From a virus (lineage: Duplodnaviria; Caudoviricetes): DNA of 64,000 nucleotides. The translations under genes were made by a program, and so were the position numbers. How positions within the stretch are numbered: position 1 is the stretch's first letter; each line of letters begins with the position of its first letter. The stretch spans positions 64,001 to 128,000 of the IMG/VR virus record IMGVR_UViG_2818991472_000001, one strand, 5' to 3'. Positions 2,739-46,678 of the stretch are shown here, piece after piece. Below the pieces are notes generated by a model. The model did no database searches, was not told the origin of the DNA, and saw only the letters and a program-made list of their open reading frames with translations.

Positions 2739-3746
2739 TCAGAACGCGGGTTCGGCCGGGCTGTCCTGGTTGAACAACCACGCCTCTTCGTCCTGGACAC
2801 AGGTGTCCTCCGGGGAGGGCTCCTGCTCCTCCTCCTGGTCGGCGCCCGCCAGACCGGGGAACAGCTTGGCCACGTGCCGGGCCACCGCGAGGCCGGAGCC
2901 TGCTCCCCGCAGACCGGACGGCGGCTGGTGGCCCAGCTGCCCGGCGGCATCGGTGTAGACCGGCTCCGGGAGCTTCACGTCGAGGTCGAACGAGTCGATC
3001 TCGTCGTCGACCACCTGCTGCGCCTGCAGCAGCTGCCCGTTGGCGTCCCAGGTCACGCGGACCAGCTCACCGGTGACGACCAGCCATCCGATCATGCGGA
3101 CCGCGAGGAGCTGCGGAACCTGGTGGGGGCGAAGACCACGGTCGACCCGGGCCTGCTGCAGCGTCGGGATCAGGTCGCCCGCCAGTTCCGACAGCCGGTG
3201 GATGCCCGATGCGGATTCGAGGTACGCGCGCACGCTGGGGCGGGCGTTGGGGAGGTTGTAGAACATGACGCCGACGCCGTGGTCGAGGAGGATGCGCTGC
3301 AGCGGCTCCTCGCCGCCTTCGGTGACGTACTTGGCCAGGACCGCGCCCTCCTCGGCGGCCACCTTCTCCGGTGAGGGCGAGGCTTCGGGCGTGGGCCTCG
3401 GGGGCACCAGCGCTGCCGTGGCCTCCACGGAGCCCACCTCGGGGCGCTTCGGCCATGCGAGGCGCAGCCGCTGCTCCTCGGCGTGAAGGGCCCGCTCCAG
3501 TTCTTCGGTTTCCACGGACTGCCGCCAGACCGTCAGCGTGCCGCCCTGCGGGTACGCGTACTCCATGGCCTTGGCCGGTGCCGAGCGGTGCTCCGGGTCG
3601 CCGGGATGGTCCTCGGACAGCCACTGGGGCGCGGCGTCATCGGGCAGGAGGCAGGAGGCGGCGTTCCGGGCGTCGACCAGGGACAGTTCCAGATTGGGTG
3701 TCCCGTCCGGCAGGACGAGCGTGTAGACGAACACGGTGTACTCCAA
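2739..3746 (-). CDS. hypothetical protein
   Basis: 335-aa ORF, GC3-rich, acidic C-terminal tail. Confidence 0.65.
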   Translation of the reverse strand: MEYTVFVYTLVLPDGTPNLELSLVDARNAASCLLPDDAAPQWLSEDHPGDPEHRSAPAKAMEYAYPQGGTLTVWRQSVETEELERALHAEEQRLRLAWPKRPEVGSVEATAALVPPRPTPEASPSPEKVAAEEGAVLAKYVTEGGEEPLQRILLDHGVGVMFYNLPNARPSVRAYLESASGIHRLSELAGDLIPTLQQARVDRGLRPHQVPQLLAVRMIGWLVVTGELVRVTWDANGQLLQAQQVVDDEIDSFDLDVKLPEPVYTDAAGQLGHQPPSGLRGAGSGLAVARHVAKLFPGLAGADQEEEQEPSPEDTCVQDEEAWLFNQDSPAEPAF

Positions 3747-12545: not shown

Positions 12546-12646
12546 CGGATTCCGTCGCCGACTGGCAGTGATCGTGCGGAATCCGTGGCTCGGCCCTAGG
12601 GGGCGAGACGACGGAATCCGTAGATTGGGCTACGGATTCCGTCGTC
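12546..12646. repeat. four CGGAWTCCG boxes; the last two form a perfect 17-bp inverted repeat with a 6-bp spacer
   Basis: boxes at 12546, 12577, 12612, 12633; GACGACGGAATCCGTAG-attggg-CTACGGATTCCGTCGTC. Confidence 0.85.
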
Positions 12647-41886: not shown

Positions 41887-42819
41887 TTAACGCTGCCAGG
41901 GTTCGAGTTCCGGTTCGACGTTCTTCCAGGCCACGATCCCGAGCGATGCACTGCCGGGGCCCCACGGTTCCTTGCGGGCCCGGGTGGCGTAGCCGTCCTC
42001 CCGCAGGGTGGCGGTGATGAGGGTCTGGGCTTCCGTCCAGTGCTCCTGGTAGCGGGCGAGCTGCGGGTCGGGGAACCAGGCGACGTGGGCGCAGTCGACG
42101 GCGCCCAGGGGCCGCAGGGTGGGCTTCAGGTCCCATACGACGCAGCCCTTCCCGATCCGGGACGGGACCTTCTCCAGCGGGCGCTCCCCGTACACGTAGT
42201 TCTGCATCATCAGCCGAGCGGCTTCGAGGACGCGGCGCACGCGCTCCTGCTCGTAGGCGGCCTTGTTGATGCCGTACTCAAAGTTCGGCCGGGCGGGACC
42301 GTAGGTGGCCCAGGCGTTCGCGGGCTTCCTGGGGGGCTCCACGCCGGGCGCCATCCGGTAGACGAGGATCTCGGCTCCGGGGTGGTGGGTCGGGGTCCAG
42401 AGGTCGCTGTGGAACTCGGCGACGTAGCCGAGGGACTCCAGGGCGGCCACCGTGGCGGCGATCCGCTTCTCCCAGTGCGCAGCGGCCCCGGTCGGGATCG
42501 TGCGCTTGCGGTAGTCGTTGCTGTACTGGGGGCGGTGGGCGACGTCGGGGTACCAGTTGACCACCACGCACAGCTCCGCCCCGTCCGGCCAGCACTCCTC
42601 GGGTGCCTGGAGCGCCTGGCACCAGCCGAGGCCCTTCGGGAGGACCCGGTGGCCTTGGGCGTCCACACCTTCGCCGAGGCCGAGTCGCATCAGGTCCTCG
42701 TTCACGATGTGCCTGGCGCCGAACGGCCGGACCGGTTCGTACGGGGGCTCGTCGTCCTGCTGCTGGGGCTTGGGCTCCGACGTCTCGGCGGGTTCGCCGT
42801 CCTTCACGATTCTCAGCAT
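41887..42819 (-). CDS. hypothetical protein with two divergent copies of the repeated module
   Basis: ...VAALESLGY and ...ATLREDGY module ends. Confidence 0.65.
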   Translation of the reverse strand: MLRIVKDGEPAETSEPKPQQQDDEPPYEPVRPFGARHIVNEDLMRLGLGEGVDAQGHRVLPKGLGWCQALQAPEECWPDGAELCVVVNWYPDVAHRPQYSNDYRKRTIPTGAAAHWEKRIAATVAALESLGYVAEFHSDLWTPTHHPGAEILVYRMAPGVEPPRKPANAWATYGPARPNFEYGINKAAYEQERVRRVLEAARLMMQNYVYGERPLEKVPSRIGKGCVVWDLKPTLRPLGAVDCAHVAWFPDPQLARYQEHWTEAQTLITATLREDGYATRARKEPWGPGSASLGIVAWKNVEPELEPWQR

Positions 42820-42876
42820 GACGGCATTGTGAATCATTCTCGGAAGGTTCTTCAACGATTCCAGAAAGTACGACTG

Positions 42877-42904
42877 CCGTGGGATTGCATATGCAATCCC
42901 ACGG
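42877..42904. repeat. 28-bp perfect palindrome
   Basis: CCGTGGGATTGCATATGCAATCCCACGG between divergent genes. Confidence 0.9.
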
Positions 42905-42969
42905 GACTTATGGGTTCCGGAAAGGCCAAATGGGTGACACTCGCTACTCGCCTCGGTACACTACTTGCC

Positions 42970-43419: not shown

Positions 43420-44037
43420 ATGTCCGACAAGGCAGAGGACCACCCGGACGTGCAGCGGCTCCTCGCTGCGTACCAGCGGCTGCAGGAGACCAGCCTCACC
43501 TTGCTGGCACTGACCGCCCAGATCAGCGACCTCGGCCCCTACGGTACCGAGGAGCTGCCAGACGCCCTGACGGCACTGCGCTCGCTCGTGGAGCAGGAGT
43601 TCTACGTCCACGAGTTGGCAGAGGTTCTGCGGTCGGTCTCCTGCGCCTATACCGTCGACCCGCTCGCCGCCCTGCGCCTGGGCGGCGAGGACCCGTTGGC
43701 GCTGACGGGGGCCATCATGATGATCCGGGGCACGCTCAGCCAGCTCGATGAGCTGGGTGAGCTGTTTCAACTTCCGGTCCTCACCGTGAAGTTGCCGGTC
43801 GACCTCGGCTGGGAGCAGCGCCAGCCCGGGGGCTGCCGGTGCGCCTGCCAGTTCTTCCACCAGGCACCCGGGGTCTGCCTGCGGGCCGGGCAGCCGGGCC
43901 TGTTCGTCCGGGTGGTCTCCAGGCAGGTCTTCTCCCCCGAGCCCGCCGAGGTCGAGACCGGCATGGTGGTGGTGTGCCTGGACTGCTACCAGGCCATCGC
44001 CGCCCGGCAGGACGGCGTGGCCTCCGGTCAGCAGTAG
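43420..44037 (+). CDS. hypothetical protein with Cys/His-rich C-terminus
   Basis: GGAG RBS; CRC...H....C...CLDC. Confidence 0.65.
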   Translation: MSDKAEDHPDVQRLLAAYQRLQETSLTLLALTAQISDLGPYGTEELPDALTALRSLVEQEFYVHELAEVLRSVSCAYTVDPLAALRLGGEDPLALTGAIMMIRGTLSQLDELGELFQLPVLTVKLPVDLGWEQRQPGGCRCACQFFHQAPGVCLRAGQPGLFVRVVSRQVFSPEPAEVETGMVVVCLDCYQAIAARQDGVASGQQ

Positions 44038-44637
44038 GTCAGGCGACGGTCTCGCCCGCCTCCCAGGCCGCCGCGACCGTGTCCTGGTCCACGTCCGGCG
44101 CGAGCTTCGCCCGCCGCATGTCCTCGCACCGCACGTCGGCGCTCAGGAGCGCGATCGTCTCGCCGTCGCCGTCGTACAGCTCGAACGAGTGGCCGTCCCA
44201 CTCCTCCGGGACGGCTCCCGAGAGGGTGCCGAAGTCCCCGCCGCTGATCTTCTCGCCGTCGCTCGGGCGCAGCACGATGTACGCGCGCAGGATGACGACG
44301 TCCGGGTTCGTCTTCTTGGCCATGCCGAGTAAGCCCCTTCCTGGGGTGATGTGGTGGAGGTGGTCGGCGATCACCGACAGCACTGACGCTACGCATCGAG
44401 CCCCTGTGCTTCAACTGTCCTCACACCGCAGGAATTTGGCCGCTCGGAGGGGAAGATCGCTGCTCTGGCTGCCCCGAAGCAGCGCCTGGTGGCGGTGCTG
44501 GATGCGGCTCGGCTGCCATCAGACGCAACGCACGACGCTTCAGGTCCCCGCAGCTCGACCCGCCTTGAATGTCACCGTTCTATAACGATGAGATCCGCCC
44601 CTCGCGCAGCAGTAGGTCAGGTGACCGTCTCGCCCGC
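44029..44637. repeat. 31-bp direct repeat (44029-44059 and 44607-44637) flanking a one-gene cassette
   Basis: CAGCAGTAGGTCAGGYGACSGTCTCGCCCGC, 2 mismatches. Confidence 0.8.
44039..44323 (-). CDS. small acidic hypothetical protein
   Basis: AGGAAGGGG upstream of MAKKT. Confidence 0.6.
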   Translation of the reverse strand: MAKKTNPDVVILRAYIVLRPSDGEKISGGDFGTLSGAVPEEWDGHSFELYDGDGETIALLSADVRCEDMRRAKLAPDVDQDTVAAAWEAGETVA

Positions 44638-45348
44638 ATACCAGTTCTCCGAGGAGGTGAAGTGCCATGTCCAGGGGACTGTCCGGCATGCGTAGATCCG
44701 GCGCTCCCGTCGTGCCTCGTTGCCGCGCACGTCGTGCAGGATCTTGAATTCGAGAAGCTGCTGTTCGGCCTGGTCCCACGTAAAGGGGATCTTCCCGCAC
44801 ACGCAGCGGCTGGGCTTCTGAGCCTGGCCGCTCCTGTCCCATGCCTCCAGGGCGTCGTCGCACCACGTCGTCAGGGGGGTGATTTGCTCAGCAGCAGCAG
44901 CATTCAGTTGGGTGGAGATGGCGATGTTGCGCTGCGCTGAGTCTCCAGCCTCCTCCACCACAGTGAGCCGTGCCCCCATCTGCAGGGCCTTCGAAGCTGC
45001 CTGTGCAATGAGCGTCTCGATCTGAGGCGATCGGGAGCGGAGGCGGACGGCGCTTCCGGCGAGGAGGCGGTTCCATGCCAGTGCGGACGTGTGGCGCGAG
45101 AAGTGCATCTGGATGGGTACTGGAGCCGTGATCCGCAGCATGGTCGCCAGGGCGCAGACAACCTCCAAGGTCTCCAGATCCGCACACAGCCCCATATCGG
45201 CGACTAGATGCCTGGTCTTATTCCGATGCGTGTAGCTGCGTACGACGTGGACTTTCCCGGCGCCTTCGCTCCAGATTCCGCGCACCCTGACGCGCTGGCC
45301 GTTCCGGAGCTGCTTTTGGCGGCTGATTCGTGGGTGAATCATTTGCAT
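44617..45348 (-). CDS. hypothetical protein with C-terminal CGK...Y.C...WH.TS zinc-finger-like motif
   Basis: motif familiar from actinophage proteins; lower GC. Confidence 0.6.
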   Translation of the reverse strand: MQMIHPRISRQKQLRNGQRVRVRGIWSEGAGKVHVVRSYTHRNKTRHLVADMGLCADLETLEVVCALATMLRITAPVPIQMHFSRHTSALAWNRLLAGSAVRLRSRSPQIETLIAQAASKALQMGARLTVVEEAGDSAQRNIAISTQLNAAAAEQITPLTTWCDDALEAWDRSGQAQKPSRCVCGKIPFTWDQAEQQLLEFKILHDVRGNEARRERRIYACRTVPWTWHFTSSENWYAGETVT

Positions 45349-45479
45349 GAAGGCGATTATCTAGCACCAATCCAGTCGGCATCGGGGGTTTCACGAAACA
45401 TCCCATCCTTTCCAGAAATGAAATATAGAGAGTTGATAATCAAATCCTCTCGATGGGACCGGAGAGCCGCCTTGGATGT

Positions 45480-45531
45480 TACTCATGAGTAGCTTGCGGT
45501 AATGGAGGTTACCGCAGGCTACTCATGAGTA
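45480..45531. other. putative tyrosine-recombinase target site (lox/dif-like)
   Basis: 23-bp inverted arms (1 mismatch) around asymmetric 6-bp spacer TGGAGG, 53 bp before the recombinase start. Confidence 0.7.
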
Positions 45532-45583
45532 GCCTGTAGCGTGGGCTGGACATGGTTCCATCTCACGCCCTTGAGGACCGCCG

Positions 45584-46678
45584 GTGACCGCCACCGAGAT
45601 CGTCGACGCCGAGCTGGTCGACGAGCAGCCGCCCGAGGCTCCGCCGCTGCGCGGGACCTCCCTCGTCGTCGCCGACGGCCGGGCTGGAACGCGCCCGGGT
45701 CTGTCCGACGCGGCCCGGCGCCGCCTGGAGCAGTCCACCCCGGAGGAGACGCGCCGCGCCTACCAGCGCGAGTGGAACCGGTTCTTCGCCTGGTGCTGGA
45801 AGAACGCCGTCCGGCCGCTGCCGTGCACCGACGACGACCTGTCCAACTGGGTGGCCGAGCGGTGTGATAGCAGCGACGGCATCTCCGCGATCCGGCAGGG
45901 CATCGGCGCCGTGGTGATGGCGCACGAGACCCGCTACGGAGTCGGCAAGGGGCCCAAGACGAAGGAGAGTTGGCGCATCCTCTCCTCCTACAAGCGCGAG
46001 CGGTTCGACGCCGGGCACCGCGCCGACCAGGCCGCCACCTTCAACGCCGACCAGCTGCGCGAGATGCTGCTCACCATCCCGAACGACCACCCGGCCGGGG
46101 TCCGCGACCGGGCCCTGCTGTGCACCATGGTGGCGTCCATGAACCGGCGCAAAGCCTGGAACTCCCTGGACATCGAAGACGTGACCGAGGACGAGCTGGA
46201 CCCCGAGTCGGCCGACCAGGAGCTGCTGGCCGACCTGCGGGCGTTCGTCGGCCGTTCCAAGACCGACCAGGCCGCCCGGGGGCGCACGGTCGTGATCCCG
46301 CCCGGCGAGCACGAGCTGTCGGACCCGGTGGGGAACCTGCAGGCGTGGCTGTGCGAGATGGGCGTCCAGGGCGTCACCACCGGCCCGCTGTGGCGGCCTT
46401 TCAGCCGGGGCGGGCGCATCCTCGACCGGCGCCTGAACACCGACCACGCCCGCCTCCTGGTCCGCGACGCCGCTGCCCGCGCTGGGCTCAAGGCCCCGCA
46501 CGGGCGCACGTTCAAGGCCCACTCCACCCGGGCCTCCGCCGTCCGCATCGCCCGCAAGGCTGGGAAGACCTGGTCGTCGATCGAGGAGCAGGGCGGCTGG
46601 GTGCCCGGCTCCACGGCTGCCAAGGGATACGACCGGCCGGAGGAGGAGGAGAACGCGATGCGCGGAGCGGGCCTGTGA
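45584..46678 (+). CDS. Cre-like tyrosine recombinase
   Basis: T.RAY...W..F..WC core-binding domain; RDRALL...RR; RSKTDQ..G; HSTR; QGGW...S....Y. Confidence 0.9.
   Translation: MTATEIVDAELVDEQPPEAPPLRGTSLVVADGRAGTRPGLSDAARRRLEQSTPEETRRAYQREWNRFFAWCWKNAVRPLPCTDDDLSNWVAERCDSSDGISAIRQGIGAVVMAHETRYGVGKGPKTKESWRILSSYKRERFDAGHRADQAATFNADQLREMLLTIPNDHPAGVRDRALLCTMVASMNRRKAWNSLDIEDVTEDELDPESADQELLADLRAFVGRSKTDQAARGRTVVIPPGEHELSDPVGNLQAWLCEMGVQGVTTGPLWRPFSRGGRILDRRLNTDHARLLVRDAAARAGLKAPHGRTFKAHSTRASAVRIARKAGKTWSSIEEQGGWVPGSTAAKGYDRPEEEENAMRGAGL

Follow-up and report, generated by a model that had tools for sequence, protein, structure and literature searches.

The 64,000-nucleotide stretch analysed here (the window) comprises positions 64,001 to 128,000 of the IMG/VR virus record IMGVR_UViG_2818991472_000001, and the subject of this study is a tyrosine recombinase gene in it together with the nested palindrome just upstream. 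The open reading frame (ORF) at 45584-46678 on the plus strand is a real gene, with a GTG start, a G+C content (GC) of 0.95 at third codon positions (GC3) and a ribosome-binding site, GAGGA (45573-45577, plus strand), 6 nt ahead of the GTG; its product, P0001, has 364 amino acids. The repeat ends 52 bp before the GTG and occupies 45480-45531, with the layout TACTCATGAGTA-GCTTGCGGTAA-TGGAGG-TTACCGCAGGC-TACTCATGAGTA. It is a 23-6-23 inverted repeat with one mismatch, the left arm TACTCATGAGTAGCTTGCGGTAA (45480-45502) and the right arm TTACCGCAGGCTACTCATGAGTA (45509-45531) being 96% complementary according to the repeat finder (I1). Outermost lie the left (45480-45491) and right (45520-45531) boxes, two copies of the perfect 12-bp palindrome TACTCATGAGTA placed 40 bp from each other. 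Inside them are the left core arm GCTTGCGGTAA (45492-45502), a putative recombinase half-site, and the right core arm TTACCGCAGGC (45509-45519), separated by the asymmetric 6-bp spacer TGGAGG (45503-45508, plus strand), the putative region of strand exchange, which would give the site its direction. The right box plus its flanks forms a 22-bp perfect palindrome (45515-45536, I14). A sequence-only reading of the window had described 23-bp arms with one mismatch, an asymmetric 6-bp spacer and palindromic outer arms, and this is how the sequence reads.

No short-range inverted repeat longer than this one occurs on the 155,259-bp contig that carries the window (C8). Its arms, of GC 0.43, are the sole AT-rich ones among the long repeats of the contig; the rest, with values of 0.56-1.0, are GC-rich hairpins. 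When the window was shuffled 20 times the maximal arms reached 12-16 nt, against the 23 nt observed. In the whole genome (10.09 Mb) the motif TACTCATGAGTA, at one mismatch or fewer, has two copies, both at this site; the 28-bp core is single-copy, and 8-6-8 versions of it with mismatches are also found here alone.

P0001 is predicted to be a Cre/MrpA-type tyrosine recombinase, active-looking in that its active site is intact and its predicted fold Cre-like. It contains the signature R...K...H-x-x-R...[H/W]...Y of tyrosine recombinases, and in an alignment with 13 homologs the catalytic residues R174, K226, H313, R316 and Y349 are invariant and W339 nearly so. A sequence search of the PDB with P0001 matched Cre chains alone, near full length and with an E value of 5e-6; the HSTR...GGW of P0001 aligns with HSAR...GGW of Cre, and RDRA with RNLA. 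The AlphaFold2 model (predicted local distance difference test score 79, predicted template modelling score 0.62, residues 1-37 predicted disordered) presents the two-domain Cre fold devoid of an arm-binding domain. In a Foldseek comparison with the PDB, the listed matches of this model down to rank 30 are all Cre or Tre (best E 1e-13, template modelling score ~0.6). Integrases of the Xer, integron and lambda types come after these, with E values of 2e-6 or worse, and the list has no protelomerase. The XerC/XerD models of NCBIfam were not matched (TIGR02225, 19.1 versus 329.6 bits; NF002331, 15.4 versus 371), scores overall being 15-19 bits versus cut-offs of 279-371. Most of the homologs have a precomputed PF00589 domain in the protein database. 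The motif RSKTDQ, which the sequence-only reading took as typical of Cre-like resolvases, does align with the catalytic-lysine region of Cre, but it belongs to the MrpA-like clade and is no general signature of Cre.

Homologs of P0001 have related sites beside their genes. The best of them, 54-57% identical, are all metagenomic, others (P0009-P0011) are 44-46% identical, and a search of 166 further genomes of the genus and about 400 sampled genomes of the family gave no homolog above 39%. At the locus of the closest homolog, L009 (57%), the composite site aligns without gaps as TACTTGTAAGTA-AGTTGAGGTAA-CCACAG-TTGCCACAAGC-TACTTGTAGGTA, with TACTTGTAAGTA as the positional equivalent of the left box. 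The spacer CCACAG is unrelated to TGGAGG, whereas arms and boxes are kept, and the L009 composite is self-complementary at 16 of 23 positions. The central motif GGTAA-N6-TTACC stands exact beside the recombinase gene in L004, L007, L019 and L020, with core arms of up to 14 bp in the last two, and with one change in L009. In L007 it reads GGTAA-CCTCCG-TTACC, the spacer being the reverse complement of TGGAGG with one change. The Streptomyces plasmid pRLB1-9.1, listed among the loci with the exact motif, has it 470 bp upstream of its recombinase gene and once in 154 kb. The background of this motif is 2 per 10 Mb, one of the two being the site described here. The other, GGTAA-GGGTGG-TTACC, is chromosomal (C1:3293193-3293208) and its flanks match the phage arms weakly.

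A sister clade, with 34-39% identity and in six Streptomycetaceae genomes, has arms TGACCCTCSATAA of 13-15 bp in the arrangement SATAA-N6-TTATS, about 20 bp before the ATG, and the site is single-copy in the five genomes searched for it. Changes between these arms are compensatory (CCATAA/TTATGG versus CGATAA/TTATCG) and the 6-bp spacers vary. The arm mismatches are C-A or T-C with no wobble pairs, which argues for a DNA site bound by protein and against an RNA stem. Among distant relatives in IMG/VR (25-31% identity) several have repeats of the type GATAA-N6/7-TTATC adjoining the gene. Thus the search for the site upstream of homologs, proposed in the sequence-only reading, returned repeats of like geometry, [G/A]TAA and TTA[C/T] around a free 6-bp spacer, next to the genes of relatives. 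A search for related loci among the genome contigs gave no relative, and tblastx of the homolog loci against C8 gave mostly compositional noise.

Three minor observations concern the surroundings of these sites. The hexamer CCTAGG is conserved 9-10 bp before the 13-6-13 repeat in five sister-clade loci (L010, L011, L015, L016 and L017); it may mark where the upstream gene ends or be an additional element. About 20 bp from the core of L020 there is a further palindrome, GACAGAAGTCATTC-GAACTC-GAATGTCTTCTGTC (L020:2780-2815). In L013, a Kitasatospora plasmid locus, nested palindromes lie about 650 bp upstream of the recombinase gene (3159-3249), namely a 20-7-20 repeat built from two 19-bp palindromes, plus CCTGACAGTCAGG twice.

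A recombinase with an adjacent palindromic site that serves multimer resolution is textbook biology. A system of this kind in a related host is MrpA/mrpS of the Streptomyces coelicolor plasmid SCP2* (Warth, Haug & Altenbuchner 2011, Arch Microbiol 193:187; Warth & Altenbuchner 2013, Arch Microbiol 195:617; cited in PMC4685060, PMC3218068 and PMC6486577). MrpA appears as a plasmid multimer resolvase where PMC3218068 cites it; expressed in E. coli it recombines plasmids with mrpS, whose oligonucleotide is printed in a supplement (PMC4685060). The natural mrpS in SCP2 (AL645771) reads TCTGGCTCTTGATAA-CGTTCC-TTCTCTAGAGCCAGA, a 15-6-15 repeat 17 bp before the ATG of SCP2.07c. P0001 and MrpA (SCP2.07c) are homologous over their full lengths, with 27% identity and an E value of 4e-14 between residues 5-364 and 16-371 (BLASTP), and share an N-terminal (D/E)VV/IV(E/D)AELVD and a C-terminal G-x-G-L motif. 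The two systems belong to the same host family, and each has, immediately upstream of the gene, an inverted repeat whose arms end in ...TAA around a 6-bp spacer, as is characteristic of the MrpA/mrpS family. They differ in that mrpS is a plain 15-6-15 repeat devoid of dyad boxes, whereas the window site combines an 11-6-11 core with two 12-bp palindromes; in the distance to the start codon, 17 bp for mrpS and 52 bp here; and in the carrier, a 31-kb conjugative plasmid for SCP2 and a 155-kb tailed-phage-like replicon for the window.

Cre/loxP of the phage-plasmid P1 offers the best structural match, with the same catalytic R, K, H, R, W and Y. It likewise pairs a simple recombinase with one palindromic site close to its gene, on a myovirus whose map is circular; cyclisation and dimer resolution would be the expected roles. 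However, P0001 and Cre are about 19-20% identical, and loxP, of 13-8-13 geometry, has no accessory boxes; with 11-bp core arms and a 6-bp spacer, the window site is not of the lox type. Pairs mined by computation (Dre/rox, Vika/vox and the YR series; PMC10250229) are of the same kind, a simple Cre-type recombinase and a palindromic site. To predict the target of a Cre-type gene as a palindrome no more than 1 kb away is established practice, and roughly one in two of the predictions put to the test there proved active. The 11-6-11 core, the TAA-N6-TTA layout and the function in dimer resolution recall XerC/D-dif, XerS/difSL and XerH/difH. In XerS/difSL, moreover, the site is directly upstream of the recombinase gene. 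Nevertheless, P0001 is no Xer protein, the Xer models scoring far below their cut-offs and Xer standing seven orders of magnitude below Cre in Foldseek, and its replicon is a phage while that of Xer is the chromosome. In TnpI/IRS of Tn4430 and Tn5401 and in XerCD acting at cer/psi the core is flanked, as here, by extra protein-binding elements. Sites of the TnpI/IRS and cer/psi type overlap the recombinase promoter, leading to autoregulation. Their accessory elements are on one side and impose direction, whereas the boxes of the window site are identical and symmetric.

The outer boxes look functional, as judged from their pattern of conservation. L009 has them too, again 40 bp apart, whereas mrpS and the other homolog loci examined lack them. 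One of the L009 boxes has undergone a double change that preserves the dyad, from TACTC..GAGTA to TACTT..AAGTA, and both L009 boxes have their central GT in the same, direct orientation. The L009 box changes would fit two separate dimer-binding sites better than longer recombinase arms. The pattern TACT-N4-AGTA has no further copy on C8, which would place the boxes outside any phage repressor regulon, and has 13 copies in the rest of the genome (9.9 Mb). Scans for the exact composite pattern, either both boxes with the core or one box with the core, found none in IMG/VR or GTDB genomes, and in JGI metagenomes four chance matches, in low-GC contigs lacking a recombinase. The boxes would be accessory or autoregulatory elements, as the sequence-only reading had proposed.

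The replicon is a myovirus-like phage genome with a circular map, possibly a phage-plasmid. The GC of C8 is 0.696, against 0.73 for the chromosome contigs of the host, a Kitasatospora-type actinomycete, and 107 of its 140 genes lie on one strand in a rough GC3-based gene call. It encodes a baseplate J/wedge protein, an NlpC/P60 protein, tail-fibre-like proteins, DnaE and a large terminase; the HK97 capsid model had no match in the genome, and no second PF00589 gene was found on C8. For the baseplate protein the nearest relatives, at 27% identity, are in 155-kb Mycobacterium myophages. Since an ORF of 508 codons (GC3 0.84) is continuous across the contig ends (154623-155259 joined to 1-890), the map is circular and the contig is cut inside a gene. 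The plasmid pRLB1-9.1, of 154,158 bp, is deposited as circular and is also an IMG/VR viral genome; identity with the C8 proteins is 66% for the baseplate protein and 45% for the recombinase. The search for a second copy of the site on the replicon, suggested in the sequence-only reading, confirmed a single copy. A single-copy site on a circular map fits dimer resolution or circularisation, the role initially suggested, better than integration.

In Logan contigs the site is intact and internal in the runs X1 and X2, which come from one sample. In the run X3, which comes from an independent sample of this organism, unitigs end at 45454 and resume at 45512, with no variant letters reported, and the summed depth is doubled in the bin of the palindrome (1359 versus ~700), which could be an effect of the palindrome on assembly or an unseen variant. 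A joint 46254->44474 in the same run, in one contig with a 35-nt side, was treated as a repeat artefact.

Taken together, P0001 and the upstream site are probably a recombinase and its crossover site, which would perform multimer resolution or cyclisation in the manner of Cre/lox or MrpA/mrpS and regulate its own expression. The inner 28 bp, GCTTGCGGTAA-TGGAGG-TTACCGCAGGC, would be the crossover site of P0001. With a recombinase monomer on each arm, two such sites would come together in a tetrameric synapse, in which the asymmetric 6-bp spacer would be the place of strand exchange. Given a single site in every genome copy, the reaction would convert dimers or multimers of the replicon into monomers; it could also circularise terminally redundant DNA upon injection, as Cre/loxP does for P1. 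Occupancy of the site would also repress the recombinase gene, because the site is directly before a conserved -10-like hexamer. This hexamer, TAGCGT (45537-45542, plus strand), is the candidate -10 element of the recombinase promoter; TAGNNT is kept at equal offset in L009 (TAGGCT), and most sister-clade loci likewise have a comparable hexamer after the repeat (for example TAGAAT, TAGACT and TAGGAT). The right box falls where the -35 element and the promoter spacer would be expected. The two outer 12-bp dyad boxes would be accessory: a dimeric protein, or recombinase subunits beyond those on the core, would bind them and so adjust recombination or expression. The analysis shows the anatomy of the sequence, an intact active site, a Cre-like fold, homology to MrpA, the same type of site beside homologs, a single copy and a circular phage replicon; from these we infer DNA binding, the positions of cleavage, and what the site and its boxes do.

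Several observations weigh against this interpretation. In the protein, PF00589 reaches 24.1 bits (E 3.4e-5, in the C-terminal part), below its gathering cut-off of 27.1. Among the homolog loci, L005 (54%) and, in part, L007 have no equivalent long palindrome in the available flanking DNA; the core of L007 has arms of about 5 bp and the opposite spacer orientation; and in L004, L005 and L007, the closest homolog loci with enough flank, an extra upstream gene overlaps the recombinase start. The conservation of the boxes is that between two sequences, the window and L009. A scan for consensus promoters and terminators found nothing, no canonical sigma-70 promoter included. Finally, no ParA (AAA_31) or ParB_N gene was found on C8, so that plasmid-like maintenance is plausible at most and C8 could be a co-sequenced phage.

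The palindrome might instead be a transcriptional operator only, acting on the recombinase gene and perhaps on the divergent ORF at 44617-45348 through a dimeric regulator or through the recombinase as repressor. Its position in the 235-bp divergent intergenic region, directly before the conserved -10-like hexamer, is what would be expected of an operator; each outer box has the form of a classic dyad operator of 12 bp, and the symmetric compensatory change in L009, with the central GT in direct orientation in both boxes, is as for separate dimer sites. However, the inner arms match the geometry of recombinase sites found family-wide, with a free 6-bp spacer as in the proven mrpS, and there would be no regulon, since the box motif is nowhere else on the 155-kb replicon. 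Furthermore, the two explanations overlap, because a crossover site located at its own promoter doubles as an operator, and in tyrosine recombinase systems such as mrpS the two can be one stretch of DNA. An operator pure and simple is unlikely. It is improbable that the site is an attP and P0001 a phage integrase acting on a chromosomal attB, despite the presence of a tyrosine recombinase on a phage genome with the site beside its gene, as in many temperate phages, and of one GGTAA-GGGTGG-TTACC in the chromosome at C1:3293193. That lone motif is what chance predicts (~1 per 10 Mb) and its spacer differs at two of six positions; the chromosome has no match to the site beyond 13-14 nt, which is the chance level, and lacks the boxes. 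The replicon forms a contig of its own, circular in map, and has no tRNA gene in the vicinity of the site, and P0001, with residues 1-37 predicted disordered, is devoid of an arm-binding N-terminal domain, its fold and homologs being those of simple Cre/MrpA-like recombinases.

That the 52-bp palindrome is an RNA or DNA hairpin unrelated to the recombinase, such as a terminator, an RNase III site or a cruciform, is very improbable. The stem would be very long, and on the plus strand the arm mismatch would become a G-U pair, but no T tract follows the repeat, no convergent genes end there, and the arms are AT-rich, unlike the GC-rich hairpins of the replicon. The sister-clade mismatches never are wobble pairs, and L009, self-complementary as it is at 16 of 23 positions, nevertheless keeps boxes, arms and spacing, a pattern of recognition by protein. 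In phage N15 a palindrome likewise adjoins a gene in the telRL/telN arrangement. A telomere-resolution target for a protelomerase-like enzyme, giving a hairpin-ended linear prophage as in N15, would agree with a large nested palindrome directly upstream of a phage gene of the tyrosine recombinase type, and with the fully palindromic centres of L019 and L020 (CATGCA). Yet the centre TGGAGG is not palindromic, and in the Foldseek list Cre is followed by integrases of the Xer, integron and lambda types, with no protelomerase. The catalytic pattern H-x-x-R...W...Y is that of Cre. Contigs of X1 and X2 run through the intact site, and the contig ends lie elsewhere, inside a gene. The chances of this explanation are very slight indeed.

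The crossover-site interpretation, which we prefer, bears on the claim of a new recombinase/target pair. The pair as such is supported by the sites of the relatives, the position of mrpS and the L009 composite, but its kind is not new, MrpA/mrpS and Cre/loxP being known. It is a further member of the known Cre/MrpA kind, distinguished by its phage-like carrier and its symmetric outer boxes. If active, it would provide another orthogonal single-protein recombinase/site pair, native to high-GC actinomycetes, in which MrpA/mrpS and Cre/loxP are already used for genome engineering. In addition, a large, circular, myovirus-like Streptomycetaceae replicon, possibly a phage-plasmid, would join the carriers of P1-style Cre/lox modules. 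The symmetric boxes, kept in the closest relative, make a simple test case for accessory sites that would regulate a simple recombinase; to our knowledge, symmetric flanking accessory sites have been described for no tyrosine recombinase. It is conceivable, though doubtful, that the site embodies a distinct architecture, a dif-like core clamped by a pair of identical dyad boxes at a distance of 40 bp. The boxes would then be bound and bridged by a dimeric factor dedicated to them, or by further recombinase subunits forming a second layer, and this bridge would gate the core and switch recombination and recombinase expression together, for instance by permitting them only at one stage of a phage-plasmid life cycle.

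The intergenic region that holds the site separates the recombinase gene from the divergent ORF at 44617-45348 (GC3 0.78, no family). Pfam, NCBIfam and PHROGs assigned no function to the divergent ORF P0002 or to the other neighbours, hence no candidate binder of the boxes came out of these genes. At the site itself, Rfam returned only sub-threshold hairpin models of eukaryotic microRNA precursors, far below gathering, to which no weight is given, and plasmids searched with the intergenic DNA yielded no meaningful match. The protein encoded upstream of the recombinase in L005 shares a domain with the window ORF at 43420-44037 (38% identity), for which reason the stretch between that ORF and the recombinase gene (44038-45583) looks like an insertion or rearrangement relative to a layout of the L005 type. 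This ORF has a DUF6372 C-terminus, and its N-terminal 111 amino acids match the C-terminal domain of the L005 protein, a helix-turn-helix protein directly preceding the recombinase. The stretch, of 1.5 kb and lower GC, holds the site plus two minus-strand ORFs, the 3' ends of which share a 45-bp direct repeat (44029-44073 and 44607-44651, 84% identical). Between the site and the recombinase there is a mini-ORF of 11 codons (45553-45588, ATG GTT CCA ... CGG TGA), whose stop overlaps the recombinase GTG in GTGA; it would start a few bases past the start of transcription predicted near 45549, downstream of TAGCGT, and may be due to chance or to translational coupling.

Two other repeats of the window are worth recording. 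At 12607-12646 lies a second low-GC inverted repeat, GACGACGGAATCCGTAG-ATTGGG-CTACGGATTCCGTCGTC, of 17-6-17 geometry and arm GC 0.59, the sole other AT-leaning long repeat of C8 with a 6-bp spacer. The other, at 42875-42906, is a 32-bp spacerless palindrome, TGCCGTGGGATTGCAT|ATGCAATCCCACGGGA, with one mismatch and arm GC 0.56; placed just upstream of the minus-strand gene 41887-42855, it may be an operator.

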